Positions 32,829 through 62,351 of a DNA stretch of 64,000 nt are shown in pieces; within the stretch, counting starts at the first letter, position 1; every line of letters starts with the position of its first letter. Position numbers and translations under genes: made by a program. This stretch comes from Candidatus Sungiibacteriota bacterium (GTDB lineage Bacteria > Patescibacteriota > Minisyncoccia > Sungbacterales > HO2-52-23): assembly GCA_016432465.1 (NCBI GenBank), contig CP066690.1, forward strand, positions 786,724-850,723. The letters run 5' to 3'. The notes under the pieces are model-generated. The model did not search any database and was not told where the DNA came from. It saw only the letters and a list, made by a program, of their open reading frames with translations.

Positions 32829-32833
32829 AATTT

Positions 32834-34315: not shown

Positions 34316-34402
34316 AAACGATTGACTCAGCGTACTTATTTTCTTACACTATCAGTATACCGAAGATTTGCCGAAGATGTAACAAGTGAGTTATCCACAG
34401 AC

Positions 34403-37082: not shown

Positions 37083-37103
37083 TCTTTTTTAATTACAAAT
37101 ATT

Positions 37104-37589
37104 ATGGCCGCAGGATGGGTACATGCATCGATGGATTTAATGGCGTTTGGACGCAGTTATTTTGATTTGCATAAATACAAAGATCATCCTTGGAGAGAGT
37201 TGGGATATAAGCATAGGCAAATAAATCACGATTGGTATAAAGAATTCGGTAAAAGCTGGAATTTCAATGAACCATTCCCCCCAATAATTCACATGAGAAC
37301 TGATGCTATAGAGAATCCAGATGAGGCGGAACAATTTCAATCGTGGACTTCACACGATTATTTGGATCGTATCTGGGATACTCTTGATTTTGAACGGCGG
37401 AGAAGTTTTGAGCTGGCTTGCAAATGGTTTTTGGAAAACCCCGAAGAACTGAATCGAGTTTACGAAATCGATGTTTTTAGAGGTTTAATTTTCCGTGTTA
37501 TTGACGGAAAAGAAGTAACTGAGAATTGTCCTGAACTCGTCAAAGAATATCAGCGTCTCCGTAGCTATGTGGCAAGGATTAATTTGTAA
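37104..37589 (+). CDS. Hypothetical protein (161 aa), third gene of DUF4238 operon
   Basis: Co-directional, 21 bp after the preceding gene. Confidence 0.35.
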   Translation: MAAGWVHASMDLMAFGRSYFDLHKYKDHPWRELGYKHRQINHDWYKEFGKSWNFNEPFPPIIHMRTDAIENPDEAEQFQSWTSHDYLDRIWDTLDFERRRSFELACKWFLENPEELNRVYEIDVFRGLIFRVIDGKEVTENCPELVKEYQRLRSYVARINL

Positions 37590-37855
37590 ACTTCTTAAGC
37601 TCGTCTAATTCGGGTCAATCTGGTGCCAGTGGTACAAAGCTCTGACCCGGGGTTAATCGCTCGCCACAGGGGCACACAGCTCGTAATTCGCGGTGTTTCT
37701 ACCAGTAGTTCACGATCTTAAACGGAGAAATGTTGCCGGGAATCTGCCAAATAGCGGTTCTAAATGCGTGAAGCGCGCGGAGCAAGATATAGGTAGCGGA
37801 TGGCAAATAAATCTGTTTCTGTGTACAACTCTGGATTTTTCTTGGGATAATTGAT

Positions 37856-44282: not shown

Positions 44283-45719
44283 TTATGGGGTTGGGTGCTT
44301 CTTTAGAAATTTAACCCTGCCCAGCGAAAAGAGGCCGTAGCTTGCCAGCAAAAATATAAAGGTATTGACCGGATAGCGGTGCCGGCCGTAGTCGCTGAAG
44401 CCCGCAACAATGGAGGTGGTTGCGTAATATATAATAAGTAGAGCAAGGAGGAGAGCAATCACTCTCCCAGCGCCCCCCCTTTTAACTGCCAAAAAAGCGC
44501 CGAGAGCCCCCAAGATGGTCAGAAATATCCAGAAAATTCTACCCGCTAATGGTATTAAAAAAAGTACTCCGAGTCTTTGCCAGACGAGCTTGGCAAGCGC
44601 CCCGGGCCCTTCTTTGATAAGCGTCACGGATGGGGAAAAGTCCATGGCAAAGCGCGGAATTACCCTGTATTGCCGTAAATAAGTGGCATATAAATCTTGG
44701 GTAAAGAAAGAATTTATGCTTATCGCAAAAACAGCCAGCGTTTCTTTGGGATTTTCAAGCATAATTTTAATTCCTTCACGCGCCAACAAAGATCCGTAAG
44801 CCGGATTTTCTTTTAAATCCTTAATAGTAAGGCCTTCCCGTAAAGCCAGGGTTTTATAAAGTTTTTCCTGCACTTCGCCATAAGGCTGGTCTGTTTTATA
44901 GTTCATTACCGAGGTGCCAAGAGACGAATAAATGTTGCGAACTCCGGTGGTGGACACGCTTATTGTGCCAAAGCGAATGTAGTTGCGGAGCAGCCAAGGC
45001 GAGAGGGTGAGGAGAAAGAAGACGGTAAACACTAACAGGATTAAGGCCCTCTGTTTAGCCGCCAGCACGATTCTTTCTTCGGGGGCGGGATCCGACCGCA
45101 CTCTTTTTAGGGATCCTTTAAGAAGAAGAATGAAAAGAAAAACGGCGGCCGGTATAAAAAGAAATTGAGCGTGAGGGCGAGTAAGAGTAGAAAGGCCAAG
45201 AAGTAAACCGGAAAAGAGAGCCGAACGGACTGAAAAATCTCCCAGCAGTTTTATAAAGAAAAAAACAGCCAGAAGCAAAAAGAAAACAGCAACCACGTCG
45301 CTCATTACGGTAATACTCCATAAAACCCCCAAGGGCTCAAACGCCGTGAGTCCGGCGGCCACTCCGGAGACGAAAGGGCGTACAGATAAACGCTCGCCAA
45401 TTCGGAAGACCACCAACGGCATTAACGAAGCAAGAATAATTTGTAAAATCAAAACCGGAAGTATGGAACTGGCTATAAGTTTTGATCCGGCAATTAAAAG
45501 CGGATAAAGAGGCGGGAAAAAGGCGGTCGGTAAAAAAGGCGGTTCGGGTTCCCGGGAGAATCCGTGTCCTGCCAGAAGATTATTGGCAGTTCGCAAAAAT
45601 ATTCTGGAGTCAGTAAGTTCCAGCCCCGTTTCTCCAAAATTGAGAAGCAGCGCAGAAAGGAGCAGCAAGCGAACAACCAAAGCAAGAAGGATAATTATAA
45701 TAAGTTTTTTTGGAATCAC
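44283..45719 (-). CDS. ArnT/PMT-like (GT39/GT83-type) polytopic glycosyltransferase
   Basis: About 12 TM helices and an N-terminal loop with conserved acidic/aromatic pattern typical of lipid-linked-sugar glycosyltransferases. Confidence 0.55.
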
Positions 45720-46342
45720 AGCGATTCTTTTTTTGCGACAACGATAAAAGTTGGTGATAAGTAATGCGTCAAAAGCGGATGTGAAAGGGTAAACTTTAGA
45801 AGTGCGTAAGGGAAGAACCCAAAAATTTTGGCGTGAGGGAAAAGTTGCATGACATCTTTAAGACTAAAAAACTTTTTGTGGTCAGGATTTTGCAGATCCT
45901 TAGGAGTATAGCCGAAAATTTTAAAAAAGGTATAAAGCCAAAAATAGGAATTAGGCGTAGTAAGCAGCAGTAGGCCGCCTGGCCCCAAAACCCGTTTGAT
46001 CTCCCGGATCAGATGATTGGGCGTATATAAATGTTCCAGCACGTCACTTGACCAAACAAGGTCAAATGACAGATCAGGGAAGGGGAGTCCTTTTTCCAGA
46101 TCCACAATTCTAGTTTTGGAGTACTGCATTTCATGATCAACCGAAGTTACGTTATAGCCAAGACCGGTCAACTTCTGTGACCAAAAGCCGTCTCCGCAAC
46201 CCATGTCCAGCGCTGTTTTTCCGGTAACAGCAAATTTCTTAGCAAATCGGAAACAAACCTTTTTGCTTTTAGCCCAGTGCCGCGCGTGTCCGGTGCCAAG
46301 GTCAATCAAGGGTAAATTTTTAAGAAATTGTAAAAAGCCCAT
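45716..46342 (-). CDS. Class I SAM-dependent methyltransferase
   Basis: [15 protein letters not shown] (motif I). Confidence 0.6.
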
Positions 46343-46415
46343 TTTAATGATTTTACTAATGAAACTAGCAGTAGACCTGTTAGGTTATATATACAGTGTA
46401 TACTAGGGAAAATTT

Positions 46416-47597
46416 ATGGTCTCGACAAGTAAGGCACCAGAAAAATGGGCCGCCAAAGTTCCGCAGCTTGATTTGGGGCGCTACGCCAGATTAGTAAGTG
46501 AGAAATGGCTGCGGTGTCTGAAAAACATTACCGACTCCGGGAAAGTTCTTAACGGACCGCATAAAAAAGCATTTGAGGAGGAGTGGGCGGCGTATCTCGG
46601 AGTAAAACACGTATTGGGGGTTGCTTCGGGTACCGATGCCCTTGTTCTTTCTTTGGAAGCGTTGGGTGTTGGTCGGGGGGATGAAGTAATTATTCATGCT
46701 AACGCCTTTATTGCGGACGTAGAGGCCATCATTGCTTTAGGGGCACAGCCGGTATTGGTTGATATGTCTTCTGAAGATTTGGGGCCGGACTATGAGGCGT
46801 TACCCAATGTTGTTTCCGAAAGGACCAAAACCATAATTGCTGTTCATATGCTTGGTTTGCCATGCAATGTCGGAAAGTTAATAAGATTTTCCGAAAAGTA
46901 CAACATTCCCCTGATTGAAGATGCTTCCCATGCTCACGGGGCCGCGGTTCAAGAATTGCACGGAGTTGAAGGGACGGGCGGCAGAGGAAAAAAAGTCGGA
47001 AGTTTCGGCAAAATTAATGCCTTTAGCTGCGGTCCTGTAAAAAATCTTGCCGCTTTGGGTGATGCTGGTTGTATTGCTACTGACGATACCGCTCTTTATG
47101 AAAAAGTAAAACTCTTAGCGGACCACGGACAGGCGAAAAAATATGAGCATGTGGTTTACGGATGGAATAGCCGGCTGGATGAGGTGCAGGCAGCTTGGTT
47201 AAGACTGGGGCTTACCACTCTTGATGAACGAAATCTCCGGCGGGCCGCAATTTACTTGCGCTACGTTAAGGCCTTACGCGACCTTGAACCAATGATAGAT
47301 CGCAAAGAAGGTCCTCCCAGCGATAAGTTTCCTGTTTTTCACCGCGCCGTATTTTTTAGCAAAAGACGGGATGAACTGCAGGGGTTCCTGCGCGCGCGCG
47401 GAGTTGAGACCGGAATTTACTATCCCCATGCTTTGCATGAGCAGGAAGCGTGGAAGAGAGCAGGGCTTCCCGCGGGATCTTTTCCTGTCGCCGAGAGATA
47501 TGCGCGTCAAAACATTGCCCTACCGCTTTTCCCCGAGATGACCGAGGAGGAAATAGAGTATGTCATAAGTTCCGTACGCGAGTTTTTCAGACGGTAG
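46416..47597 (+). CDS. DegT/DnrJ/EryC1/StrS-family PLP-dependent sugar aminotransferase
   Basis: GPHKKAFEEEWAAYLGVKHVLGVASGTDAL, Lys-containing segment SFGKINAFSCG; 393 aa. Confidence 0.8.
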   Translation: MVSTSKAPEKWAAKVPQLDLGRYARLVSEKWLRCLKNITDSGKVLNGPHKKAFEEEWAAYLGVKHVLGVASGTDALVLSLEALGVGRGDEVIIHANAFIADVEAIIALGAQPVLVDMSSEDLGPDYEALPNVVSERTKTIIAVHMLGLPCNVGKLIRFSEKYNIPLIEDASHAHGAAVQELHGVEGTGGRGKKVGSFGKINAFSCGPVKNLAALGDAGCIATDDTALYEKVKLLADHGQAKKYEHVVYGWNSRLDEVQAAWLRLGLTTLDERNLRRAAIYLRYVKALRDLEPMIDRKEGPPSDKFPVFHRAVFFSKRRDELQGFLRARGVETGIYYPHALHEQEAWKRAGLPAGSFPVAERYARQNIALPLFPEMTEEEIEYVISSVREFFRR

Positions 47598-47645
47598 AAA
47601 TTTTTAACTTTTGCCCGAGGAGGTTTTGATTCCCGGGCTTTTCTT

Positions 47646-48551
47646 ATGCCGCCAGAAATTTCCATTGTTGCTCCGATGCATAATGAAGAGGGTAATGCCC
47701 GGCCGCTTTACAATGCAATTAAGCAGACTATGGATAATCTTGGCCGCAGTTACGAGATAATTTTTGTTAATGATTTTTCCCGAGACAACACATTAAATAT
47801 TTTTAAAGAGATAAAGTCTCGTGATCCCAACTTTCATTACTGCGATCTTGAAGAAAATGCAGGAGAAAATTGGGCCATGCTGGCCGGTGTTTCCCGGGCG
47901 CAGGGAAAGATGGTAGTTACGATTGACGGCGATTTTCAAAATGATCCGCGCTACATACCTCTACTTTTAGATAAATTGAGTCAGGGCTACCGCGTAGTGA
48001 GCGGTTGGCGCAGAAATAGAATAGGAGGATTTTTTAGCAGAATCGCGCCTTCCGTAGCGGCCAACTTTCTTATTTCACTTATTTCCGGGGTGAGGGTGCA
48101 TGACTGCGGCTGTGGTCTTAAGGTCTATCGTAGGGAGGTTCTGGCGGGAAAGTTTGTGCCCAAGGGCTTTATGAATCGTTTTTCACCCGTTGTTTTCGGA
48201 GTAAAAAATCAGGAGTTTGCGGAGGTTGAAATTGAGGATCGGGTCAGGATCTATGGCCGGTCGCATTACGGCGCCAAGAGGATCTTGATAGTCTTTAACG
48301 ATCTTTTTGCCCTTCTTTTTATACTCCGCGGCTTCCGCAAGATGCGTCCTGTGGTTCTGACTCTGGCGTTGATATTTCCTGTTTTGGGACTTTTGGCCGC
48401 AACTTTGCTGCCTCCGCGTTCGTTACAATTTATAGTTCTTGTAGGCGCGGTCTTGCTCATGGAGACGGTTTTGGTAAGTATCTACTGGAATCTGGGCCGT
48501 TTTCTTGAAGCCGAAGTCCGCCCTCGTTTTAAAATTAAGGAGTTTGTATAA
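47646..48551 (+). CDS. GT2 polyprenol-phosphate sugar transferase (DPM1/ArnC/GtrB-like) with C-terminal TM helices
   Basis: ISIVAPMHNEEGN...IIFVNDFSRDNT, DGD motif, 2 C-terminal TM segments. Confidence 0.75.
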   Translation: MPPEISIVAPMHNEEGNARPLYNAIKQTMDNLGRSYEIIFVNDFSRDNTLNIFKEIKSRDPNFHYCDLEENAGENWAMLAGVSRAQGKMVVTIDGDFQNDPRYIPLLLDKLSQGYRVVSGWRRNRIGGFFSRIAPSVAANFLISLISGVRVHDCGCGLKVYRREVLAGKFVPKGFMNRFSPVVFGVKNQEFAEVEIEDRVRIYGRSHYGAKRILIVFNDLFALLFILRGFRKMRPVVLTLALIFPVLGLLAATLLPPRSLQFIVLVGAVLLMETVLVSIYWNLGRFLEAEVRPRFKIKEFV

Positions 48552-49579
48552 TGTCCGATCCACGGCATAAAATACGGCTGGGTCTGGTGGGACTTGGGTA
48601 TTGGGGGCCAAAACTTCTGCAGAAATTTTCCCGAATTGAGGCAGCGGAAGTAGTGCGGTTTTGCGAGAAGTCAGAAGATCTGCTGCGCGATTTTGCGGAG
48701 CGCTACCCCCTGCGCTACCCGCCCACCGTCTCTTTTGAGGAGTTAATTTCTAACGAATCATACCCGCTCGATGCCGTTATTGTTGTAACCCCGCCGGAAA
48801 CCCATGCTGCGCTTGTAGCACAGGCAATGCTACGGGGCTTGGACGTATTTGTGGAAAAGCCGCTGGCCACTAATTTGCAGGACGCGTTGTATCTCGCCAA
48901 GTTGGCACGGGAAAAGAACCGGGTACTTATGGTTGATCATACTTTTTGTTACGACCACGCCCTTCTTTATGTAAGAAATTTATTGTCAGATCGGAAGTTT
49001 GGTACTGCCGACTTTCAAGGAAGCGCGTTTGAATGGCTGGGCGCGCGGAAAAAGCCTCAAGGCCCCAGTATTCTTTGGGACTCCGGACCTCACGCCGTTG
49101 CCGCCATGTTATTTTTACTGAAGAAAACACCAGAGCGGATTAGCATGCGTGTCGTAGAAAATCTCTCCGAAAACATACCAGCAACGATGACCGGATATGC
49201 AGAGTTTACCGACGGGCATAAGGCAGAAATTCGTCTTGCTTGGCAAGACGGTGTATTGGATGGCAAGATCGTAGAAAAAGCAGCTCGGGTTGCCATTTTT
49301 GGGGATAGAAGAAAGGTTTTGTACGAAGGCACTTTTGGAAAGCGGGAGGTGCTGCTGCATCATGATTGGGACGGAGCAATACTCGCACCCGGACTCACCT
49401 ATGAGGATGAACCACTGCAGACCGTATGTGAAGAGTTTATTCGCGCCGTGGCTGAGGGCGGCTCCGCTTTTACGGACGGAGACTTTGGTGCCAAGGTCGT
49501 GGCCATTCTTGAGGCGGCAGAACGTTCCTGTATGCGGGAAGGAGAACCGATACCAATAGTTTTGCCCCAACTTTCTTAA
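48551..49579 (+). CDS. Gfo/Idh/MocA-family NAD(P)-dependent oxidoreductase
   Basis: IRLGLVGLGYWGPKLL Rossmann N-terminus; 342 aa. Confidence 0.7.
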   Translation: MSDPRHKIRLGLVGLGYWGPKLLQKFSRIEAAEVVRFCEKSEDLLRDFAERYPLRYPPTVSFEELISNESYPLDAVIVVTPPETHAALVAQAMLRGLDVFVEKPLATNLQDALYLAKLAREKNRVLMVDHTFCYDHALLYVRNLLSDRKFGTADFQGSAFEWLGARKKPQGPSILWDSGPHAVAAMLFLLKKTPERISMRVVENLSENIPATMTGYAEFTDGHKAEIRLAWQDGVLDGKIVEKAARVAIFGDRRKVLYEGTFGKREVLLHHDWDGAILAPGLTYEDEPLQTVCEEFIRAVAEGGSAFTDGDFGAKVVAILEAAERSCMREGEPIPIVLPQLS

Positions 49580-49614
49580 GCTACCGCCAGAAAAATTTTG
49601 GCGGTATTCTTTAA

Positions 49615-51330
49615 ATGATTCCTTTGTTGCGTAACAACTATATCCGATTTTTTATTTCCGCCGCTGTTGCAGCGGGCGTCTTTTATTTTTTATGGAAAGT
49701 GGTTTTACGTGAAGATTTATCGCTCCTTTCTTTTAATTTTGCTGTACGTTGGGGAATGGCGGCGCTGGTTCTAAACTTTGTACCGCTTCTGGTAAAAAGT
49801 ATACGATTTCATTATTTTTTACGCGGTCAAGTTCCCAAGGGGACAATTTTAGGCACGGCCGCGATCCATAGTTTTTGGAACTATCTGCTTCCCTTCCGGG
49901 TAGGTGAACTTTCCTACGTTTATCTCATAAAAAAAACCGGTAGAGTCAGTACCGCAGAAACCATAACTTCTCTGGTGGCCGGACGCATTTTTGATGTTTT
50001 TGTGGTCATGCTTTTATTAAGTATCGCATCTTTTTTACTGTTCACGCCGAACGTAGTAGGATCTTTAGCTATCCAGTTTTTGTGGGGAGGAGTTTTGGTT
50101 GGTCTGGTGGGAGCCCTGATTTTGGGTAAACAGGCGGATAAGCTGACGGCTTTTTTGGGGCGTAGATCCTTAAGGTTTCAGGAGAAAGGATTAAAAGTTT
50201 TTGCTAAAATTTTTACCAACTTCCGGGGGATAGTTACGGCCTTGGGAAGGCTCAATACTACCTCAAGCCTTGCCGTCTTTTTTATCCTTTCTATTTTTGT
50301 TTGGGTTAGCGACTTTATTTTTGTTTGGACGGCTTTGCGCGCTGCCGGGCTTGTACTGTCTCCCGCGTCAGCGATTTTTATTGCGGCTTTTCCGGTGATT
50401 GCCGGTCTTCTGCCCCTGCAAACACCCGTGGGAATTGGTACTTTTGAAGGAACAATGCTCGCGGGGTTTGCGCTACTGGGCATTACCGGCCCCCAAGCAG
50501 TTTCCGCCAGCATTATTCTGCACGCCGAGTTGGTTTTTTTCTCTTTTATTTATGCATTGCTGGGTTACTGGTTTTATGTGCGTCCGATACTGGCAAAAAA
50601 AATAAGCGATTCTCCTGAAAGCCACACCGAGTTTTATCAGGCCCTCCAGAGTCCGGCTGGTGATTTTAGAAACCGCAATTTAGCAGAGCTTCTTGTTTCT
50701 TATGCCAAAGGAAGTTCTTTGCTTGACGTCGGGTGCGGCTATGGACTTTTGTTGTTGTTGGCCAAGCAGCGTGGTTATCAGGCCGTAGGAATTGAGCCTG
50801 ATCCGAAAATACGGTTAGTAGGGGAAGAGGCGTTTGGTCGGTTAGAAATTTACCCGTCTGCTATTCGTGATTTTAATCCGCCCAAACTTTTTGATACGGT
50901 AACAATGATTGACGTTTTGGAGTGTTTGGAGCAGGACAAAGAAGCGCTGGCGCGCGTTGTTTCCTGGGTGAGTCCGGGGGGGCGTCTTGTCCTAGCCGTA
51001 CCCGCGCACCCCTTGCTTTTCGGGACACGGGATAAGATGTTGAAATATTTCAGACGTTATAGCAAAAAAGACCTCGTGCCAGTTTTGCAAAACCTCGGTT
51101 TTAATAAAATTTATACACGCCACTGGAACGTACTGGGAGTGTTACCCTACGCCGTTCTTTATAAATTGTTATCTTTTCGCTCGCACTTTGAAGGTTGGCG
51201 CGGAGGCGGCGCCAACGGCGTAGTCAGGACTCGGCTCTCGTCACTTCTGAACTTCTGGTTCAGACACGTAGAAAATCGTCTTAATGCGGGATTGGGCCTG
51301 ACGCTGATTGTGGTGGCAGAGAAGGAATAG
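49615..51330 (+). CDS. Fusion: N-terminal polytopic membrane domain (flippase-like/UPF0104-type) + C-terminal class I SAM methyltransferase
   Basis: About 8 TM helices, then LDVGCGYGLLLLLAKQRGYQAVGIEPD (motif I) and a VSPGGRLVL post-I motif. Confidence 0.5.
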   Translation: MIPLLRNNYIRFFISAAVAAGVFYFLWKVVLREDLSLLSFNFAVRWGMAALVLNFVPLLVKSIRFHYFLRGQVPKGTILGTAAIHSFWNYLLPFRVGELSYVYLIKKTGRVSTAETITSLVAGRIFDVFVVMLLLSIASFLLFTPNVVGSLAIQFLWGGVLVGLVGALILGKQADKLTAFLGRRSLRFQEKGLKVFAKIFTNFRGIVTALGRLNTTSSLAVFFILSIFVWVSDFIFVWTALRAAGLVLSPASAIFIAAFPVIAGLLPLQTPVGIGTFEGTMLAGFALLGITGPQAVSASIILHAELVFFSFIYALLGYWFYVRPILAKKISDSPESHTEFYQALQSPAGDFRNRNLAELLVSYAKGSSLLDVGCGYGLLLLLAKQRGYQAVGIEPDPKIRLVGEEAFGRLEIYPSAIRDFNPPKLFDTVTMIDVLECLEQDKEALARVVSWVSPGGRLVLAVPAHPLLFGTRDKMLKYFRRYSKKDLVPVLQNLGFNKIYTRHWNVLGVLPYAVLYKLLSFRSHFEGWRGGGANGVVRTRLSSLLNFWFRHVENRLNAGLGLTLIVVAEKE

Positions 51331-51345
51331 ACGTATTCCGGATTT

Positions 51346-51389
51346 ATCCCCCCACCTTCCCAGAATACTCCGCTGGGAAGGTGAGGGGA
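51346..51389. repeat. TIR element copy 5 (minimal: termini only, 44 bp)
   Basis: TCCCCCCACCTTCCCAG-AATACTCCG-CTGGGAAGGTGAGGGGA. Confidence 0.75.
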
Positions 51390-51428
51390 TTCATTGTCAC
51401 AGAACTACCGTCGTGTTAATCTTTAAAA

Positions 51429-53654
51429 ATGCAGCGAAACACTCTTGAGCGTACCGTAGTTTGGGTAGTCAAAATCGGGCTTTGGTTATTGCCGTTTTTG
51501 CCTCTTTATATTTCTTCAACCATGCTCTTCCCGTTTATTACCGGGAAGAATTTTGCTTTCAGGATTTTGGTTGAGGTCCTTTTTGCTTTTTGGGTTGGGC
51601 TGATGGTTGCCTGGCCTAAGTATCGTCCTCGGCTCACCCCGCTTTTAAAAGCGTCCACCATTTTTATTCTGATTGTTTTTTTAGCCGATCTTTTCAGCCC
51701 CAGCCCCTACCGAGCTTTCTTTTCTAACTACGAAAGGATGGAAGGGTTTATGATGGTTTTTCATCTCTGGCTTTATTTCCTGATGCTCTCCAACGTCTTT
51801 CGGACAAAGAAGGATTGGTTAGTTTTTTGGCACTCAACACTGGCCGCAAGCATTGTAGTCGGTTTTGTCGCGCTTATGCAAAAACTGGGATATCGCGTCT
51901 CTATCCAAGGGGGTTATCGCGTGGATTCCACCATTGGTAACCCGGCCTATCTTGCGGCGTATCTCTCCTTGAATGTCTGGATTATTTTTATGATGCTCCG
52001 GAGATTTTGGAGCAGGTGGTGGCTTCGTATTGTCTACACCGCGGCTTTGCTTTTTGAACTCATCATAATTTATTTCACCGCCACTCGCGGGGCGGCCGTT
52101 GCTTTTGCGCTAATAACGCCGTTGATGGCGCTGGCGGTAGTTATTTTCTGGCCGCGGCTTTTTCCTAATCGTATTTCTTGGCGTCCCTTGGCCGTTGCTG
52201 CTGTCCTGGTTTTCTTTGCTATTCCCGTTATATTCTGGCAGCTGCGTAACACCCACCTTATCCGTTCCAACCAAATTCTTAACCGCTTTGGTTCGATTTC
52301 CCTGCAGGATACAACTACGCAGGCCCGTTTTTCTATCTGGAAGATGTCACTTAGAGGAGTATTAGAGAGGCCGCTTTTTGGTTGGGGACAGGAAAATTAT
52401 TATCTTGTGTTTCAGAAATATTTTGATCCCAAGCTTTATTCCAGCGAGCCCTGGTTTGATCGTTCGCACAATGTGGTGCTGGATTGGCTAGTACATACAG
52501 GCGTCTTTGGTTTTGTTGCATTTTTTTCAATGCTGGGCGCGGCTTTCTGGGGTGTGGGGAGAGCTATACGAAGAGGCAGGATTGATGCCGGAGAAGGGAT
52601 ATTTTTGGGGGCTGCCTTGGGGAGTTACTTTATCCAAAACCTATTTGTTTTTGACAACCTAAATACCTATCTTCTTCTTTTCGCATTTTTTGCCTACACC
52701 AACTCTTTATATGAAGGTGAGCCAGAAGGGCGCCCCTCTTCTATACCCAACCCAAATTATGGACTGGCTATGGGCGGGGCGGCTTTGCTGCTGGTGTTAC
52801 TGCTTTTTTACCCGCTTCACTTCAAGCCCATTCGTCAGGCGCAGGCCCTCATTAGTGCCTTGAGGCTAAGTTACAGTAACGGCAATGCCGTTCAAATCAG
52901 GACCGCTTTTGAACAGGCGCTTTCCTATCAATCTTTTGGCACCACCGAGGTCAGGGAGCAGTTGGGAACTTTTGCGCGCGGAGTCCCCAATATCCAGCGT
53001 TTTACCGAGGATGAACAAAGAGGGTTTGTTAATTTTGCCGTGGAGGAACTTAAAAAAGAAATTTTAAAACCCAGCCGCGATGCTAAACACATGATTTTTA
53101 TCGCCTCTATACTAAATCAGGCGGCCCGCCTTAACCCCGCTTACGTTGATGAGGCAGTAACGATTATGCGGGAGGCCATCCGTCTTGCGCCCGCCAAACA
53201 AATTTTTTACTTTGAACTGGCCCAAGCGTATATTCTGCGCAAGGAATATGATCAAGCAATTGAAGTATTGCGTCAGGCCGTTCAGCTGGAACCCAATTAC
53301 GGGAAAGCAACCGGTAATCTCTTTGTTGTTGGTGCTCTGGCCGGACGTGCAGATATAATGAATGAGGCCTTCGGCAAGATTAATTTAAAAACTGCAGGAG
53401 AAGAAACGCTTAATACGGTTGGAAAAATTTATCGGAATTCCGGGGCGTATGAGCAGGCGAGGAAAGTTTATGAGCAGTTGGTAGAAATATCACCCGAAAA
53501 AGCTTCGTATCACGCAACACTGGCAGCTCTTTTGGGGGAGTTGGGAGAATATGAGTTGGCGAAAAAAGAAATTGGGCAGACCGTAGCGCTTGATCCCGCC
53601 GCCGGGGAAGAGGCCCGGGTGTTTCTCGAAATGTTGAAACAAAAAATGAGATAA
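51429..53654 (+). CDS. O-antigen ligase/Wzy-like polytopic membrane protein with C-terminal TPR repeats
   Basis: About 12 TM helices with a Wzy_C-like loop (FTATRGAAVAF), C-terminal ~250 aa of TPR-like repeats. Confidence 0.55.
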   Translation: MQRNTLERTVVWVVKIGLWLLPFLPLYISSTMLFPFITGKNFAFRILVEVLFAFWVGLMVAWPKYRPRLTPLLKASTIFILIVFLADLFSPSPYRAFFSNYERMEGFMMVFHLWLYFLMLSNVFRTKKDWLVFWHSTLAASIVVGFVALMQKLGYRVSIQGGYRVDSTIGNPAYLAAYLSLNVWIIFMMLRRFWSRWWLRIVYTAALLFELIIIYFTATRGAAVAFALITPLMALAVVIFWPRLFPNRISWRPLAVAAVLVFFAIPVIFWQLRNTHLIRSNQILNRFGSISLQDTTTQARFSIWKMSLRGVLERPLFGWGQENYYLVFQKYFDPKLYSSEPWFDRSHNVVLDWLVHTGVFGFVAFFSMLGAAFWGVGRAIRRGRIDAGEGIFLGAALGSYFIQNLFVFDNLNTYLLLFAFFAYTNSLYEGEPEGRPSSIPNPNYGLAMGGAALLLVLLLFYPLHFKPIRQAQALISALRLSYSNGNAVQIRTAFEQALSYQSFGTTEVREQLGTFARGVPNIQRFTEDEQRGFVNFAVEELKKEILKPSRDAKHMIFIASILNQAARLNPAYVDEAVTIMREAIRLAPAKQIFYFELAQAYILRKEYDQAIEVLRQAVQLEPNYGKATGNLFVVGALAGRADIMNEAFGKINLKTAGEETLNTVGKIYRNSGAYEQARKVYEQLVEISPEKASYHATLAALLGELGEYELAKKEIGQTVALDPAAGEEARVFLEMLKQKMR

Positions 53655-53693
53655 TTGGTAACCACCAGCGCCCCTAGCTCGTTTTATTATGTG

Positions 53694-54620
53694 ATGGCAC
53701 AGGAAAGACTTAAAATTGGGATTATAGGGGTGGGAATGGTGGGGACACCGCTTAAACGCTATTTTGAAGAACGACAGGGTTACCAGAGGGGCGAGACCAT
53801 TTTTCTTTACGACATAGACCCCAAGAAGGGCTATTTTGATGACATCAACAGGGCTGATGTTATTTTTATTTCTGTTCCTACACCCCGTTCCCCGGATGGA
53901 TCGGCCAATGTTTCGGCCGTTGCCTCTGCCTTGGAGATGATTCAGGGAAATAAAATCGCAGTGATTAAATCAACGGTGCCTCCCGGCACCACCGAGTTTT
54001 TTCAAAAAAAATATCCACAGCACAAAGTTTTATTTAACCCGGAATTTCTTACCGAGAAGCACGCTTGGGAAGATTTTATAAAACCGGATCGCCAGATTGT
54101 GGGTTTTACGGATCAGAGTCTTGATGCCGCGCATTTTGTGCTTTCGCTTCTCCCCAAGGCCCCTTTTATGTCGCCGTGGGGCCTTAATACTTACCGCCCC
54201 ATCAAGATTACCGCCACCGAAGCGGAGATTATTAAATACGGCGGCAACATTCATTTTGCCCGCAAGGTCAATTTGGCTAACGTCCTGGCTTTGTTTACCG
54301 AAAAACTCGGAGCAAATTATGAAAATGTGCGGGTGGGGTTGGCTGCAGATTTTAGAATAGGGGATTCGCATCTTGACGTGATCCATGGCGGCTATAAGGG
54401 GTTCGGGGGTTTTTGTTTCCCAAAGGATCTAGATGCTTTTGTGGCGCATTTGGGATCTCATGGTCTTAAGGAAGCGGCGGAACTTTTGCGTAGTGATCGC
54501 GCCTTTAACGAAAAACTTTTGGCGGGGCAGGGGCTGACACTGGAAGATGTATCAGTGCACGACCATGAATGGATACATAACAAATTAAAAACGAAAAGTG
54601 AAAAAGGCAAAACGGAGTAG
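53694..54620 (+). CDS. UDP-glucose/GDP-mannose dehydrogenase-family nucleotide-sugar dehydrogenase (short form)
   Basis: LKIGIIGVGMVGTP N-terminus, NPEFLTEKHAWEDFIKPDRQIVG family motif, catalytic Cys in GGFCFPKD. Confidence 0.6.
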   Translation: MAQERLKIGIIGVGMVGTPLKRYFEERQGYQRGETIFLYDIDPKKGYFDDINRADVIFISVPTPRSPDGSANVSAVASALEMIQGNKIAVIKSTVPPGTTEFFQKKYPQHKVLFNPEFLTEKHAWEDFIKPDRQIVGFTDQSLDAAHFVLSLLPKAPFMSPWGLNTYRPIKITATEAEIIKYGGNIHFARKVNLANVLALFTEKLGANYENVRVGLAADFRIGDSHLDVIHGGYKGFGGFCFPKDLDAFVAHLGSHGLKEAAELLRSDRAFNEKLLAGQGLTLEDVSVHDHEWIHNKLKTKSEKGKTE

Positions 54621-55512
54621 TAAGCCTAGAATACTTCTGACCGGGGGTTCGGGCTACATTGGATCAGAAATTAGAAAGCGCTTGGGTGAGCGTTTTCATT
54701 TTATCAATATGGATATTAAGTCAGGCCGCCGGGATGACGTACGAAATTTTAAACGTCTTCGGCGTGCCGTACGCAGTGTAGACGGTGTTTTGCACTTGGC
54801 GGCCGTTTCCCGCCCCAAATGGGGGTACCAGGATCCCTACCATTGTCTTATCACCAACGTGGTGGGCACCATTAATGTTTTGGAAGCAGTACGGTTGATA
54901 AACCCCCGTGCTTGGATCATTTTAGCTTCCAGTCGGGAGGTTTTTGGAAATTTGGCCAAATTTCCCGCAACCGAAAAAAGCCCGCGCAACCCTCTTAATG
55001 CTTATGCTGTCTCTAAAGTTTGCGGTGAAGACCTGCAGCGGCAATACGCAAAAAATTATGGACTGCGGTGCCTTACGCTGCGTTTTTGCGGAGTATATAC
55101 CGGACGCAGAGATATTCTGGACCGCGTTATCCCGCACTTTATTTTGCAGGCGTTAAAGAGTCGTCCCCTTATTATTGAAGGCAGCGGCAGACAAAAGGGT
55201 GACTATGTTTATATAGATGATGCCGTAGAAGGAGTGAGACGCGCGATTCACCACGTTTCTTCCAAGCGGACCGGATTTTATGATCATATTACTCTAGCCG
55301 CCCAAAACCCGATTACTCTCACCGATCTTGCCCGGATGATCATAAAGCTCGCGGGCAGCAAAAGTTCTGTTATCCATGCTCCACCCAGAAGTTATGATCA
55401 GCAGGGATTTTGGGGCACGTTCAAAAAAGCATATCGTCTTCTGGGCTGGAGGCCGCGGGTTTCTCTCCCTGCGGGATTGCGCCGCTCTATTAAGGAACTA
55501 CGAAAATTATGA
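54598..55512 (+). CDS. NAD-dependent epimerase/dehydratase (SDR extended family)
   Basis: ILLTGGSGYIGSEI, YAVSK catalytic motif. Confidence 0.7.
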   Translation: MKKAKRSSKPRILLTGGSGYIGSEIRKRLGERFHFINMDIKSGRRDDVRNFKRLRRAVRSVDGVLHLAAVSRPKWGYQDPYHCLITNVVGTINVLEAVRLINPRAWIILASSREVFGNLAKFPATEKSPRNPLNAYAVSKVCGEDLQRQYAKNYGLRCLTLRFCGVYTGRRDILDRVIPHFILQALKSRPLIIEGSGRQKGDYVYIDDAVEGVRRAIHHVSSKRTGFYDHITLAAQNPITLTDLARMIIKLAGSKSSVIHAPPRSYDQQGFWGTFKKAYRLLGWRPRVSLPAGLRRSIKELRKL

Positions 55513-56420
55513 GTACAATAAAAGTAATAGTAACCGGAGGGGCGGGCTTTATTGGTTCGCATCTGGTTGATGCTCTGATTGAGAAAGGATATGAAGTTTA
55601 TGCTCTGGACACGTTTCTAGCGGGGAAACGTGAACACTTAAATCCGGCTGCGATATTGCACGAGGCCGATATTCGTGATTTTGATAATTTGGTAAAAATT
55701 TTTCAGGGCGCGCGCTATGTTTTTCATACTGCAGCTCTGCCTCGGGTACAGCCTTCAATTCAGGATCCGCGCACCACCCATGATATAAATGTAAACGGGA
55801 CCTTAAATGTTTTGGTGGCAGCGCGGGATGCGGGGATAAAGAGGGTGATTTATTCTGCTTCTTCTTCCGCCTACGGCAATCAGGAAAAACTTCCGCTGCG
55901 GGAAGACATGGGGGCCTGTCCCTTAAGTCCTTACGGAATGCAAAAATATATAGGGGAGCTTTATTGTAGGCTTTTTTCGGAAATCTATGCTTTGGAGACT
56001 GTGGCTCTTCGTTATTTTAATGTTTATGGTCCTCGTGCTTCCACCCAAGGGGCTTATGCCTTAGTGATTGGAAGATTTTTGGAGCAAAGAAAACAGGGAG
56101 AGTCCCTGACTATAGTTCCAGATGGCATGCAGTCGCGAGATTTTACACATGTACGGGATGTGGTGCGTGCGAATATCTTGGCTGCCGAATCCCCAAAGGT
56201 CGGCAGGGGCGAAACCATTAACATTGGGGGAGGAAAAGATCGAACAGTACTTGAGATCGCAGACCTCATAGGGGGTCCGAGAGTTTTTATTGAGCCCCGG
56301 CTTGAGCCCAAACACACGTTAGCAGATATTACTAAAGCCCGGGAACTTCTGGGTTGGAGTCCGGAGGTAAACTTTGAAGATGGAATTCAGGAGCTGAAGA
56401 ATTTATACGGCATTAGATAA
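55509..56420 (+). CDS. NAD-dependent nucleotide-sugar epimerase/dehydratase
   Basis: IVTGGAGFIGSHL, YGMQKY catalytic YxxxK. Confidence 0.75.
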   Translation: MSTIKVIVTGGAGFIGSHLVDALIEKGYEVYALDTFLAGKREHLNPAAILHEADIRDFDNLVKIFQGARYVFHTAALPRVQPSIQDPRTTHDINVNGTLNVLVAARDAGIKRVIYSASSSAYGNQEKLPLREDMGACPLSPYGMQKYIGELYCRLFSEIYALETVALRYFNVYGPRASTQGAYALVIGRFLEQRKQGESLTIVPDGMQSRDFTHVRDVVRANILAAESPKVGRGETINIGGGKDRTVLEIADLIGGPRVFIEPRLEPKHTLADITKARELLGWSPEVNFEDGIQELKNLYGIR

Positions 56421-56454: not shown

Positions 56455-57831
56455 TTATCTTCCCGTCCGATGCAGAAGGGCAAATAGAGTTTTTATAATT
56501 ATAAGAAAATCAAGCAGAGCCGATCGATTTTTAGTATAATAAAGGTCATACTGCATCTTTTCCGGCGCATCTTCCACCGAAGCGTCATTCTCCATATTAA
56601 CCTGCGCCCAGCCGGTAAGCCCCGGTGGGATCAGAAGTCTCATCTCGTAGAATGGGATTTTTTGTTTAAGCTCGGCAACGTAATGGGGGCGTTCCGGCCG
56701 CGGCCCCACAAAGGACATCTCACCCTTTAGGATATTTATAATTTGGGGAAGTTCATCCAGATAACTTTTTCTAAGAAACCTGCCGGTACGGGTGTGGCGC
56801 GGGTCACGACCGGCCTCTTTTTGACCGCTAAGGTTTTCCGCGTCTTTTACCATAGAGCGGTATTTTATCAGCCAGAAGTCTTTTCCGTGCCGTCCCACCC
56901 TCTTTTGACGGTAAAAAGTCGGTCCCTCCGAATCAAGCTTTATGGCCAGGGCAATAAATGGTAAGAGGAGTAGAGTCGGAATGCCGAGCAGAGTGGCCAG
57001 CGCCACGTCCCCGATTCTTTTGAAAAATTCGTAAAACTTTTTTCGGATGCCGATAAGGTTTTCCAAAAACCAAACCTCTCCGATTAAGGAAAGAGGAATT
57101 TTCCCGGTAAGCATTTCATGATACTGGGGAAATTCAGCCACCGATATCCCCAGCGGTATTACCTGAAAGAGAAGTCTAACCAAGGTTTTATTTCCTTTAA
57201 GATCGCTGGTTATGACAATGGTATCAGCGCCGGTATCACGCAGAATATGATCCAGATTTTGATTAAATTGATAGTGGGGAAGGGGAAGGATATCTGGATC
57301 GTTTCGGGACTCACCGTTAGAGACAAAAGCCACTGGCCGCTGTCCCAATTGAGGGTTTTTAAGAAGGAAGTCCGCCAGTTCCACCATTTCCCGGTTTACT
57401 CCAAAAAAAATAACGCGCGGAGCATGGGTACGGATGATGATGAGATTAAAAAGATAGCGCCAAAGGAAAATATAGATGGTGGCAATTCCCGTGATAAGAA
57501 AGAGATTACGCCGCGGTTCTATTTCAAATATGGGGATAAGATAAAGCACTAGAATCGTGACTACGGCGTTGGTGGCCATGACGCGCAGCAGCCGGTACAA
57601 AAAGACCTTACTATTTTTCATAAAGCGCAGGTCATAGAATCCGAATGCCCCGAATATTACGAGCCAGAGGAGAAAAATTATAGAGAAGGGAAGGAGATGT
57701 CGCTTAACCAATAGGGTATCAAGTTCATAATATTGCCGTAAAAAAAGAGCGCCGAACAGCGCGGCATAAAAAAGGATCAGGTCGCCCAAGATGAGTAAGG
57801 AGACTTTTAAAGAGTGTCCCCGTTTAAGCAT
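56455..57831 (-). CDS. Polyprenyl-phosphate hexose-1-phosphate transferase (WbaP/bacterial sugar transferase family), initiating glycosyltransferase
   Basis: C-terminal FKRIGDVALATLLGIPTLLLLPFIALAIKLDSEGPTFYRQKRVGRHGKDFWLIKYRSM signature, N-terminal TM helices. Confidence 0.75.
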   Translation of the reverse strand: MLKRGHSLKVSLLILGDLILFYAALFGALFLRQYYELDTLLVKRHLLPFSIIFLLWLVIFGAFGFYDLRFMKNSKVFLYRLLRVMATNAVVTILVLYLIPIFEIEPRRNLFLITGIATIYIFLWRYLFNLIIIRTHAPRVIFFGVNREMVELADFLLKNPQLGQRPVAFVSNGESRNDPDILPLPHYQFNQNLDHILRDTGADTIVITSDLKGNKTLVRLLFQVIPLGISVAEFPQYHEMLTGKIPLSLIGEVWFLENLIGIRKKFYEFFKRIGDVALATLLGIPTLLLLPFIALAIKLDSEGPTFYRQKRVGRHGKDFWLIKYRSMVKDAENLSGQKEAGRDPRHTRTGRFLRKSYLDELPQIINILKGEMSFVGPRPERPHYVAELKQKIPFYEMRLLIPPGLTGWAQVNMENDASVEDAPEKMQYDLYYTKNRSALLDFLIIIKTLFALLHRTGR

Positions 57832-58981
57832 AAATTTTAATCATGTTCTCAATCATATCACGGAGCCGAAACCTTGTCTCGGATTTTTTTCTGGCATTTT
57901 CGCCAAGGGTTTTGCGTAGTCGGACATCTCTCAAGAGAAGGTCTAGGGTCTGGGTAAGCCTTAGGGGGTCTTGGGGCGGTATCAGGAGACCGTCGTGCTG
58001 GTGCGTAATCATATCCGGTATGCCGCCTACGGAAGTTGCGACAATCGGCAGACCCGCTTGCATAGCTTCCATTATGGTGTAGGGTAGTCCCTCTTTGAGC
58101 GAAGGCAAAATAAAAATATCAAAGCCCTTAAGATAGTGCGCCGCTTCAGGAAGAAAATCAACAAGAAATACTGAACCATGCAGTCCAAATTCCTGAATAA
58201 GGTTTTGAAGTTTGGAACGTTCTTCCCCCCAGCCAATGAGCAATGTCAAACATCGAATGTTTGACATTGCGTAGTTGGGGTTGTGCAGGGCCTGTAGGAG
58301 ACCGGTTAGTCCTTTATTAGGAGTAAACTCGGCTATAGTTCCTATGATAATAGTGTCAGTTTCAAGTTTTTTGGATAATTTTTCCGCAAAAAAATTACGG
58401 GCAGCGGCGCGTTCCATAAAATTAACCGGCCCGATTCCGTTATAGATTAAGGCGAGTTTTCTGCTGGGTATAAATTGTTTTGCCGCGTTAAGGTCGGCGG
58501 TATTTATTAGAATTATTTTGTCCTGAAATAGCGCCCCCAACCAACTTAAAAATCTGATAAATTTTTTCTGCCACCACGGGCGTTTCTCGTTAAAGGGCCA
58601 GCCGTGGACGGTGAAAATAGTTGTAAGTTGTAAGTTGTAAGTTGTAAGTTTGGCGGCGAAAGCCGCAATAGCGCCGAGGCCGCCGACTTTGCTGCTGTTT
58701 AAATGTATAATATCCGGTTTCTCGCGCACAAAAATTTTAAAGAGGTACCAAAGAGACACCAACTCTTTCCATAAATTTATGTCGCGCTGGAGTCCGGGAA
58801 TAGTAATGGTGCGGACTCCCGCTTTTTGTAATTTATCAAAAAGCGGACCGGAACCACCGGTTGCTACCACCACCTCGAATTGACCCCCGGGGAGATTTGT
58901 CGCCAAGTCAAAAATGTACCGCTGGGCTCCTCCCCAAACGGATTTGGTGATTACATATAATACTTTTTGGTGGTAGGCCAT
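57824..58981 (-). CDS. GT4-family glycosyltransferase; contains heptanucleotide tandem repeat (candidate phase-variable)
   Basis: EGLPYTIMEAMQAGLPIVATSVGGIPDMI (GT4 EX7E region). The repeat tract at 58619-58651 encodes KLTTYNLQLTT. Confidence 0.75.
   Translation of the reverse strand: MAYHQKVLYVITKSVWGGAQRYIFDLATNLPGGQFEVVVATGGSGPLFDKLQKAGVRTITIPGLQRDINLWKELVSLWYLFKIFVREKPDIIHLNSSKVGGLGAIAAFAAKLTTYNLQLTTIFTVHGWPFNEKRPWWQKKFIRFLSWLGALFQDKIILINTADLNAAKQFIPSRKLALIYNGIGPVNFMERAAARNFFAEKLSKKLETDTIIIGTIAEFTPNKGLTGLLQALHNPNYAMSNIRCLTLLIGWGEERSKLQNLIQEFGLHGSVFLVDFLPEAAHYLKGFDIFILPSLKEGLPYTIMEAMQAGLPIVATSVGGIPDMITHQHDGLLIPPQDPLRLTQTLDLLLRDVRLRKTLGENARKKSETRFRLRDMIENMIKIYA
58619..58651. repeat. Tandem heptamer (AGTTGTA/GTTGTAA) x ~4.6 inside GT4 coding sequence
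   Basis: AGTTGTAAGTTGTAAGTTGTAAGTTGTAAGTT; the unit length is not a multiple of 3. Confidence 0.9.
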
Positions 58982-60123: not shown

Positions 60124-61161
60124 ATGCCAGTAACTATAAAAGAAAATATCTCCCTCGCGCCCCACACTATATATAAAATAGGGGGGCCTGCGCGATATTT
60201 TGTGGAGACGAAAAATTCAGATGAGCTTAAACAGGCGCTTGATTTTGTAGCAACAAAAAAAGTTCCTATTTTTGTTTTGGGAGCAGGCTCAAATATATTA
60301 GTGAGCGATAAGGGGTTTGATGGTTTGGTAATTCGTATGGCCGGCGGGGAAGTTAAGGTTGAGGGCGAGAGATTGACTGCGGATGCCGGAGTTATGATGG
60401 CGCAAGCGGTATTGAAATCAGCGCAGGCTGCTTTAAGCGGTTTTGAATGGGCCATCGGAGTTCCCGGAACTATTGGCGGATCGGTGCGGGGCAATGCCGG
60501 GTGTTTCGGCGCAGAGATGAAAGATGTCGTTGAATCGGTGAAAATTCTTGACTTGGGGAAGTCGGACTTCCCAAGGAAGTCCGACTTCCTGATATTGAAA
60601 AATACACAGTGTGAGTTCTCGTATCGCGATTCAATTTTCAAAAAACATCCGGAGTGGATTATTCTTTCCGCGACCCTAAAACTTCAAAAAGGAGATCCTG
60701 CTAAAATTCAGGAGAAAATAAAACGCATTACTGCCGAGCGCGCACAAAAACAGGACATTGGCACCAAATCCTGCGGGTGTATTTTTAAAAATATTTCTTG
60801 GGCCCCGTTAGAGGTAAGCCGCCCCTTGGCGGCTGCCGCCGTGCCGTCCGGGCAGGGCGGACCTCTAACGGGGTGGGCAAGAAAAGATATAAATAAGGAA
60901 AAGATTCTTTCACAATTTCCCGAGCTTGAACAATTTAAGGATCAACCCAATGTCCCGGCCTCGTTTCTTATTGATAGGGCAGGACTTAAAGGAAAAAGTG
61001 TTGGACATGTTTTTATCTCCCCAAAACACGCCAATTATTTTGTAAATGAGGGCGGTGCAACGGCTGAAGGGGTTGTCACGCTTATTGGGATTGCCAAAGA
61101 CACCGTGCGACATAAGTATGAATTGTCGCTTGAGGAAGAAATACAGTATGTGGGATTTTAA
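60124..61161 (+). CDS. murB: UDP-N-acetylenolpyruvoylglucosamine reductase, with two in-frame palindromic insertions
   Basis: N-terminal FAD-binding domain (IYKIGGPARYFVE...VPIFVLGAGSNILV), and a C-terminal domain ending EEEIQYVGF. About 45 extra residues relative to typical MurB, located at the palindromes. Confidence 0.8.
   Translation: MPVTIKENISLAPHTIYKIGGPARYFVETKNSDELKQALDFVATKKVPIFVLGAGSNILVSDKGFDGLVIRMAGGEVKVEGERLTADAGVMMAQAVLKSAQAALSGFEWAIGVPGTIGGSVRGNAGCFGAEMKDVVESVKILDLGKSDFPRKSDFLILKNTQCEFSYRDSIFKKHPEWIILSATLKLQKGDPAKIQEKIKRITAERAQKQDIGTKSCGCIFKNISWAPLEVSRPLAAAAVPSGQGGPLTGWARKDINKEKILSQFPELEQFKDQPNVPASFLIDRAGLKGKSVGHVFISPKHANYFVNEGGATAEGVVTLIGIAKDTVRHKYELSLEEEIQYVGF
60555..60589. 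repeat. GGGAAGTCGGACTTCCC palindrome (1.9 copies) in-frame inside murB (encodes GKSDFPRKSDF)
   Basis: Same palindrome family as 7992, 13231 and 18219, which are otherwise intergenic. Confidence 0.8.
60804..60873. repeat. GC-rich palindromic insertion inside murB (CCCCGTTAGAGGT ... ACCTCTAACGGGG arms)
   Basis: 13-bp inverted arms around a GC-rich core, translated in-frame as an Ala/Gly/Pro-rich loop. Confidence 0.6.
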
Positions 61162-61375: not shown

Positions 61376-61581
61376 GATGACTATTGCAAGATTTAAATGG
61401 ATATGGTATTATGAAATTATAAAAAAGCTAAGCTCTTTTGATTAAGTTTGCGAGTTCGCCATAGCGTTTGGCGTGTTTGGAAAGCACTTCAAACGCTGTG
61501 GCGAATGGGAGGGTTAAATCGGTGCTCGCATGGTGCGACTGCCGACAAAACCGCGCTACGGCTCGTGCAAGGAGGCCCATC

Positions 61582-62190
61582 ATGGGCGACCATACCAATC
61601 TCATCATTACTGCAGTGAACACGCTGACTGCGAACGCGGACCTGGGGTCATTAGATCCCGAACGGTTCCAGGTCCAGGACCGGATCATTCGCGATGGGCA
61701 GCGCGCCGGTCGCGAGTTCCGGAAGTTTCTCGAGCTCGGCGCCGAAATCCAAATTGTGGTGCCTGAGCTCCATGTCATCGACTGTCGTATCGCCTCGATG
61801 CCACGAGAGTGGCGAGAGACTGGGTGGAAAGTCGAGTGGCACCGCAACCTCGGGCATCAGGTCTTCACGCCTGATGCCATCCGTCTGCACCTCGCCGAGG
61901 AGCAGAAGGATGGCAGGATCGTGCGCGGCGACAAGCTGCGCAAGATCATCGAGACCGAGCCGGTCCTCACGGACAACTGGCTTGACTTTCTCCTCGAGCA
62001 TCCGGAGTTCATACCGGAGTCGTGGAAGGGGAAGGCCATCTTCTTCTGGGGGACTGGCTACCGCCACCCCGACGGCGGCCTCTACGTCCGTTTCCTCTCT
62101 TTTAGTGTTGGGCTGTGGTACTGGCGCTGCTACTGGCTCGGCATCGACTGGTCTCAGTCGTACCCGGCTGCGGTGCTCGCAAGCTCCTGA
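61582..62190 (+). CDS. Hypothetical protein within high-GC insert (start at MGDHTNL assumed)
   Basis: Longest ORF in a ~0.9-kb GC-rich segment that also yields overlapping ORFs in all frames. Coding status uncertain. Confidence 0.3.
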   Translation: MGDHTNLIITAVNTLTANADLGSLDPERFQVQDRIIRDGQRAGREFRKFLELGAEIQIVVPELHVIDCRIASMPREWRETGWKVEWHRNLGHQVFTPDAIRLHLAEEQKDGRIVRGDKLRKIIETEPVLTDNWLDFLLEHPEFIPESWKGKAIFFWGTGYRHPDGGLYVRFLSFSVGLWYWRCYWLGIDWSQSYPAAVLASS

Positions 62191-62351
62191 TCGCTTGGTC
62201 GCTGGGTCACTTGTGCGCAAGGCACTTTGACCCTCTGACCCTTACCTGCCATCAGGCAGGCAAAGAGTCGGTTCACCCCTGGTGGACCGACTCTTAAATT
62301 AACTATGATTGAAGTCGAACTTCAATCATTAAAACTTCAATCATTAACTGC

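Follow-up and report, generated by a model that had tools for sequence, protein, structure and literature searches.

A heptanucleotide repeat tract within a GT4 glycosyltransferase gene of Candidatus Sungiibacteriota: a probable low-copy slippage switch with natural OFF alleles in related bacteria

Background

The lic2A, lgtC and lex2A genes with their tetranucleotide repeats, and other genes with poly-G tracts, are examples of surface-glycan genes governed by simple sequence repeats (SSRs). SSRs control ON/OFF frameshifts of the LOS, LPS and capsule glycosyltransferase genes in Haemophilus, Neisseria and Campylobacter (PMC2651432). A heptameric repeat, AAGACTC, is present in the 5' coding region of neuO, the capsule O-acetyltransferase gene of the E. 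coli K1 prophage CUS-3 (PMC13001214). The number of neuO units ranges from 3 to 53, with about 20 being common; the gene is OFF in 66 % of genomes, and its switching has been measured (PMC13001214). Every three units lengthen the protein by a 7-aa peptide, expression depends on the frame being kept, and the mechanism is slipped-strand mispairing (PMC13001214).

Heptamers are reported to be the most abundant class of long SSRs in many bacterial genomes, and a cause related to the polymerase footprint has been proposed (Mrazek et al. 2007, as summarised in passages of PMC4692102 and PMC4679880). The heptamer arrays described in these passages comprise the cyanobacterial STRR, GGGNATC in Xanthomonas and Nostoc (GGGAATC in Xanthomonas) and TAACTGA in Beggiatoa (PMC4692102, PMC4679880).

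No paper tying phase variation to CPR or Parcubacteria was found in the literature searched. The CPR (Patescibacteria) are uncultivated, ultra-small and mostly episymbiotic bacteria, and attachment to hosts and contact with phages are believed to be mediated by their surface glycans. The present analysis concerns a heptanucleotide tract in a 64-kb stretch of DNA, referred to below as the window. Slippage is an already known mechanism; it is the lineage, at the level of phylum, that is new for it. We put at about 60 % the probability that the tract in this genome is a low-copy ON/OFF slippage switch of a glycan pathway.

Results

The tract and its reading frame

The tract, identified by TRF and direct reading of the sequence, is a perfect 32-bp array at positions 58619-58650, with period 7, consensus AGTTGTA, 4.6 copies, 100 % matches and a score of 64. 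On the + strand it consists of four AGTTGTA units followed by AGTT, and the pattern is broken at base 58651. The first-pass annotation of the window gave the correct unit and copy number and ended the tract at 58651, 1 nt too far. On the coding (minus) strand the array is (AACTTAC)n and corresponds to nt 332-363, codons 111-121, of the GT4 gene (57824-58981). The sequence and the open reading frame agree with the annotated placement in the 5' third of this minus-strand gene, in frame, and with the annotated peptide: AAA CTT ACA ACT TAC AAC TTA CAA CTT ACA ACT is translated as KLTTYNLQLTT.

When the window was shuffled 200 times with dinucleotide composition preserved, no shuffle (0/200) contained a perfect tract of at least 32 bp with a period of at least 5, and perfect tracts with periods of 4-12 did not exceed 18 bp. 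With the exception of one 12-nt tetranucleotide run, the array is the sole perfect tract of period 4-12 with at least three copies in the window. A second AGTTGTA array was sought across the 64 kb, as were other period-7 tracts and comparable tracts of any other period from 4 to 12, and none was found.

Gain or loss of one or two units, introduced in silico, leads to stop codons at aa 125-149, in line with the frameshift that had been predicted for a one-unit change, and gain or loss of three units keeps the frame. The loss of three units from the GT4 gene gives a short loop as found in more distant relatives. As in SSR contingency loci, the tract is a tandem SSR inside an ORF, its unit is not divisible by 3, and a one-unit change costs the full-length product, in silico for this gene and in natural OFF orthologs described below. 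The copy number of 4.6 is at the low end for hypermutability and below that of most characterised switches; the orthologous tracts that slipped have 3-5 units.

The GT4 protein

The ORF encodes a GT4 glycosyltransferase of 385 aa, in frame (ON) in this genome. It matches the Pfam families Glycos_transf_1 (1.6e-33; 116 bits at a curated cut-off of 26.4) and Glyco_transf_4 (4e-18; 66.5 bits at a cut-off of 28.5), and its PDB profile matches are BshA, HepE and PglA. The AF2 model (36 homologs) has a mean pLDDT of 92.3, and Foldseek aligned it with HepE, BshA and PglA at a TM of about 0.8 (E = 1e-20), so that model, structural search and PDB profiles agree on a GT-B fold with two Rossmann domains. 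The E-x7-E motif of the C-terminal domain is present as E297-GLPYTIM-E305, both E being invariant in the 36-sequence alignment. By homology the product would act on a surface structure. The protein is 100 % identical to an annotated protein of a Candidatus Sungiibacteriota MAG, encoded on a 923-kb contig; exact look-ups of both proteins in a contig index gave no contig. The closest other protein among 5.8 billion database entries is 61 % identical, and copy number is compared below among orthologs that are at most 61 % identical to the window protein.

In the AF2 model the tract residues (pLDDT about 93) close helix 97-114, make up loop 115-119 and open strand 120-125, which runs into the invariant T-x-HGW motif. 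That the segment is well ordered, and no disordered linker, speaks against a switch. The possibility that the tract is an insertion in a disordered loop was considered and rejected, since the spacing equals that of BshA and the model is confident at the site.

Genomic neighbourhood

The GT4 gene leads a two-gene operon that borders a glycan cluster; its partner codes for an initiating sugar-phosphate transferase. The second gene (56455-57831, minus strand; Pfam PF02397, 5.9e-61) encodes a Bac_transf initiating phosphoglycosyl transferase of 458 aa, and its ATG overlaps the GT4 stop codon as ATGCTTAA (57824-57831, same strand), as read directly from the sequence. Because of this stop-start overlap translational coupling is probable, and an OFF state of the GT4 gene could have a polar effect on the Bac_transf gene.

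The envelope-glycan cluster itself (44283-56420) was delimited from the ORF list and Pfam matches. It lies upstream of the GT4/Bac_transf pair, with murB on the other side, and contains genes for a PMT_2-like transferase, a methyltransferase, a DegT aminotransferase, a GT2, an oxidoreductase, an LPG_synthase_TM-methyltransferase, a Wzy_C/TPR polymerase-ligase, a UDP-sugar dehydrogenase and two epimerases. The Pfam assignments of the neighbours, including Wzy_C and Bac_transf, bear out the earlier placement of the tract gene within a large envelope-glycosylation cluster.

Two further features of the window were recorded. Positions 32001-38000 form a low-GC block (0.39-0.40, in comparison to 0.45-0.49 in the rest of the window) which may be acquired DNA, and a perfect 2 x 15-nt tandem repeat, AACTTCAATCATTAA, is located at 62318-62347, just downstream of ORFs at 61468-62230 that have no Pfam match.

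Homologous tracts in orthologs

Ortholog loci were collected from species-representative genomes (80) and metagenome contigs (80), the latter by searching with the C-terminal part alone, which keeps frameshifted loci from losing rank. The loci scored were the 147 with an HLNS and an FT-x-HGW motif on either side of the site, irrespective of frame. Lag-7 identity of at least 0.75 at exactly the tract site was found in 23 of them. The site common to the window and its orthologs is the same helix/strand junction, where tracts of 4-5 copies are present; relatives with a motif spacing of 72 nt have no tract.

The units differ from lineage to lineage: CTTACAA in the window, and GCTACAA, CCTACAA, CTTTCAA, CTTATAA, CTAAAAA, ATTCAAA, ACGCTTC, ATGGGTT, TCGTGTN and TACTCGT in others. 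The encoded peptides, among them LTTYNLQ, ATSYKLQ, KFKIQNS, LVTRYSL and VMGYGLW, are unalike where the units differ, and therefore the common feature is the DNA period and not the peptide. The 12 lineages with the 90-nt spacing all keep an AACT core; at the remaining positions of the unit they differ from one another but agree internally (0.84 vs 0.43 permuted, 0/5000). Such agreement within lineages calls for concerted evolution or repeated re-expansion, either of which needs slippage, and units that are lineage-specific yet homogeneous within a lineage point to concerted evolution.

The closest ortholog, P0002 (locus L001, 61 % identical), matches the window in both peptide and unit number, and its tract DNA is identical to that of the window at 30 of 32 positions. 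Where the two proteins have identical amino acids, the codons are also identical in 9 of 11 cases within the tract and in 94 of 213 (44 %) elsewhere (binomial P = 0.013); as a test on one close ortholog with modest significance, this is not leaned on. The first-pass annotation had held that one and the same copy number in all reads and strains, together with conservation of the repeat at the protein level in orthologs, would speak for a structural repeat instead of a slippage tract. The orthologs go half way in this direction: P0002 retains peptide and copy number and no in-frame length variants of plus or minus 7 aa were found in the ten 90 %-identity clusters searched, but the peptide follows from the DNA repeat. 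On the sequence comparisons, the tract peptide is the by-product of the DNA repeat and not the reverse.

Other orthologs carry heptanucleotide tracts at a second site, roughly +330 to +400 nt past the HGW codons, where the linker between the domains leads into the IIGxGE strand (L003, L005, L006, L012, L018, L051, L090, L091, L110 and L119); the window gene has no tract there. In L119, TACTCGT is repeated four times at both tract sites of one GT4 gene (2305-2344 and 2711-2749), and a one-base variant, TTACTGG, is repeated three times in a neighbouring GT4 paralog (L119:422-457). The pattern suggests either tract-to-tract exchange or a heptamer preferred by that genome.

Natural OFF alleles and their ON partners

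Four natural OFF alleles were found, only by a targeted fragment search for which first residues 1-121 and later a profile of the N-terminal region served as query. Their length departs from the in-frame state by exactly 7 or 14 nt, and the ortholog fragments they encode have 181, 153, 154 and 131 aa. Full-length ON partners of two alleles, L083 and L084, were obtained by cluster look-ups.

The L083 allele has a motif spacing of 83 nt (90-7); its upstream frame ends with KLSTIN and a stop codon, and its downstream frame is open for 222 aa up to the normal C-terminus. L083 (OFF, 181 aa) was compared with L165, a contig from a JGI sample encoding the 400-aa protein P0202 (ON), and over 6546 nt there were no mismatches and one 7-nt gap, in the tract. 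The idea that L083 is a decaying pseudogene, raised by its short C-terminus, was rejected, as the ON allele P0202 has the same C-terminus. The L084 allele has a spacing of 71 nt, the addition of 7 nt restores its frame and its downstream frame is open for 299 aa. No mismatches and one 7-nt gap separate it from L170 (JGI sample) over 6462 nt and from L171 (Logan) over 5863 nt, both of which encode the 389-aa protein P0310 (ON). P0202 and P0310 share 44 % and 35 % identity with the window protein, and their tracts align with its tract residue for residue. Tract-length polymorphism between otherwise identical contigs was thus seen in two orthologs (L083/L165; L084/L170 and L171).

The other two alleles deviate by 14 nt. 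L167 has a spacing of 76 nt (90-14), with one AAACTATGGACTAA double unit absent in comparison to the L020 type, and L168 and L169 represent one allele from MEGAHIT and Logan assemblies, with a spacing of 88 nt (102-14). The downstream frame is open in all three contigs. L166 was rejected as a slippage allele since it carries a 1-nt deletion.

Since the ON and OFF members of the matched pairs are alike but for one heptamer, slippage at the homologous tract toggles the gene in nature. As read from the assembled alleles, slippage can demonstrably cause frameshifts at the homologous tract in related organisms, and with the 7- and 14-nt OFF alleles and the two matched pairs the slippage mechanism put forward in the first-pass annotation is upheld at homologous tracts. 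The two OFF alleles with full matches were both assembled in ENA entry ERZ27293400; in a tract of 35 nt the assembler itself is an unlikely source of the 7-nt gaps. The occurrence, twice, of a unit indel with no substitution in about 6.5 kb argues for a high indel rate of the tract, which would be close to the summed substitution rate of several kilobases, with some ascertainment bias.

Out-of-frame alleles were absent from two untargeted scans (0/145 loci, about 20 of which have a strong tract). Because all these loci are in frame, OFF states are rare, roughly on the order of a percent, and not common among the sampled genomes. The label of a classic contingency-locus architecture therefore overstates the case: the tract has 4.6 units and 0 of 145 untargeted loci are OFF, vs 66 % of genomes for neuO.

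Period-7 bias and tracts in other genes

Arrays of at least four copies at 85 % identity or more were counted in 897 kb of related loci. Period 7 accounted for 60 of them, and periods 4, 5, 6, 8, 9, 10, 11 and 12 for 4, 10, 2, 1, 0, 0, 0 and 1, respectively. Tract density in the GT4 gene is about 5-fold that of the flanks (13 in 74 kb vs 10 in 297 kb). Tracts are also present in several GT4 paralogs of the related loci and, in frame, in one MurB hairpin loop of five relatives (L006, L009, L098, L109 and L166); in L009 the AAAATTC unit of the GT4 gene is found again in murB, there on the opposite strand. In-frame tracts in murB mean that the presence of a tract alone does not show an evolved switch.

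Most of the period-7 arrays in the 897 kb are in frame in coding sequence. The murB gene of the window (60124-61161, + strand) has at 60557-60589 two 15-nt arms, GGAAGTCGGACTTCC and GGAAGTCCGACTTCC, which are separated by a 3-nt spacer and 100 % complementary. The same arms are also a 93 % direct repeat in frame, encoding GKSDFPRKSDF, and are situated in the MurB hairpin loop that holds the heptanucleotide tracts of the five related genomes. In three short-loop relatives without a tract (P0258, P0261 and P0286) the GT4 gene is frameshifted at a poly-A run right after 'GIKK', at the same structural position; these breaks may reflect a homopolymer switch or a sequencing error.

Discussion

Proposed mechanism

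We propose that the tract would be a hot spot of slipped-strand mispairing which acts as a frameshift switch of a surface-glycan glycosyltransferase. With its current 4.6 units the gene would be ON. If replication added or removed one or two heptamers, the frame would shift and the enzyme would end at aa 125-149, lacking the HGW strand and the entire C-terminal nucleotide-sugar domain; a further slip would restore the frame. The OFF state would probably also uncouple translation of the overlapping downstream initiating transferase. Rather than a chance feature of one genome, the window tract may be the best-preserved copy of an old heptanucleotide tract common to many Parcubacteria orthologs, which repeated slippage would homogenise. 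Switching of the kind seen in the orthologs would then also take place in this organism; it would be reversible, alter the cell surface and, because the units are few, proceed at a modest rate.

Alternative explanations

The serious rival to such a switch is a tolerated mutational hot spot, in which an intrinsic 7-nt bias of replication slippage, physically the same mechanism, has no adaptive role. Tracts would survive only where a 7-aa-periodic peptide fits the fold, and OFF alleles would be loss-of-function mutants removed by selection. Its weight comes from the period-7 arrays beyond this gene, dominant throughout the 897 kb, together with the literature on heptamers as the leading class of long SSRs in many bacteria (Mrazek et al. 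2007, in passages of PMC4692102 and PMC4679880). The in-frame tracts in MurB of five relatives, where an ON/OFF state would hardly be useful, and in other GT4 paralogs fit it well, as do the rarity of OFF alleles in untargeted samples, the low copy number and the frameshifts unrelated to the tract in fragments of the family (the 1-nt deletion of L166 and the poly-A sites). A neutral bias does not readily account, however, for the roughly 5-fold enrichment in the GT4 gene, for the recurrence of tracts at the same two sites of the gene in many lineages, or for the persistence of non-triplet units in coding sequence that has next to no tracts of periods 6, 9 and 12. Moreover, the OFF alleles are the assembled consensus in their own samples, with reading frames otherwise intact. 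We consider this explanation possible but rather unlikely.

Two other readings are far less probable. The tract might encode a stable structural peptide, KLxTxNxKLxT, or reflect a codon coincidence, the DNA period being incidental and slippage not meaningful. The identical peptide in the 61 %-identical ortholog, the related KL.T.N.KL.T peptides of constant length in many others, the coincidence of the AACT core of the units with conserved residues and the well-ordered tract region in the AF2 model would suit a structural role, but a 7-nt period pairs different codon positions, so selection at the protein level cannot create it. The unrelated peptides of the orthologs all come from different heptamers at one site, variable unit positions co-vary within lineages and real alleles differ by whole units; the ON/OFF allele pairs largely refute a purely structural peptide, which is left with very little probability. 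It is just as improbable that the tract belongs to a dispersed heptamer-repeat system of the sort proposed for the cyanobacterial STRR, Beggiatoa TAACTGA or Xanthomonas GGGAATC repeats. Such an array would act as DNA or RNA, through binding or regulation, and its place in coding sequence would be fortuitous. Heptamer repeat families are known in other phyla (passages of PMC4692102 and PMC4679880) and some relatives have one unit at 2-3 loci (TACTCGT in L119, AAAATTC in L009). Against this, the CTTACAA unit occurs at one locus only in the 64-kb window instead of at many, the units vary too widely among lineages for a common recognition sequence, the known systems are mostly intergenic, and no factor or motif was found.

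A broader version of the slippage switch is put forward as a speculation, with the odds clearly against it. Lineage-specific heptamer arrays would be repeatedly written into, and homogenised in, structured segments of envelope-biosynthesis enzymes of Parcubacteria, forming a CPR 'phasome'. It would cover the two sites of this GT4 family, other GT4 paralogs and the one MurB hairpin, with a unit sometimes present at several sites per genome. Slippage or templating specific to 7 nt would provide stochastic switching of envelope synthesis, and the window would be its cleanest example.

Significance and comparison with known systems

The matched ON and OFF metagenomic alleles would be the first sequence-level evidence known to us of CPR envelope diversification by SSR slippage. 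In-frame tracts of period 7 only, laid over ordered protein segments including those of murB, bear on the question of why heptamers dominate the long SSRs of bacteria.

The tract shares with the SSR genes of Haemophilus, Neisseria and Campylobacter a non-triplet intragenic repeat in the 5' part of a surface-glycan glycosyltransferase gene. Those SSRs differ in having units of 1-5 nt and longer tracts, and in belonging to host-adapted pathogens with measured switching rates and frequent OFF isolates. With the heptanucleotide class of long SSRs it has in common an excess of period 7, short arrays (2-6 or more units) and lineage-specific units. The STRR, GGGNATC and TAACTGA arrays, however, lie mostly between genes, and a role as regulatory or G-quadruplex elements has been discussed for them, whereas the Parcubacteria arrays keep the frame of enzyme genes and replace the sequence of structured segments.

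The closest known analogue of the window tract is neuO. Both have a heptamer repeat in the 5' coding part of a gene for a surface-glycan enzyme, which is ON depending on the frame. Unlike neuO, a prophage acetyltransferase gene, the window gene is a chromosomal GT4 gene with 4.6 units, and OFF states are rare among its orthologs. The neuO tract encodes an N-terminal extension of the protein, whereas the tract described here encodes part of the folded core.
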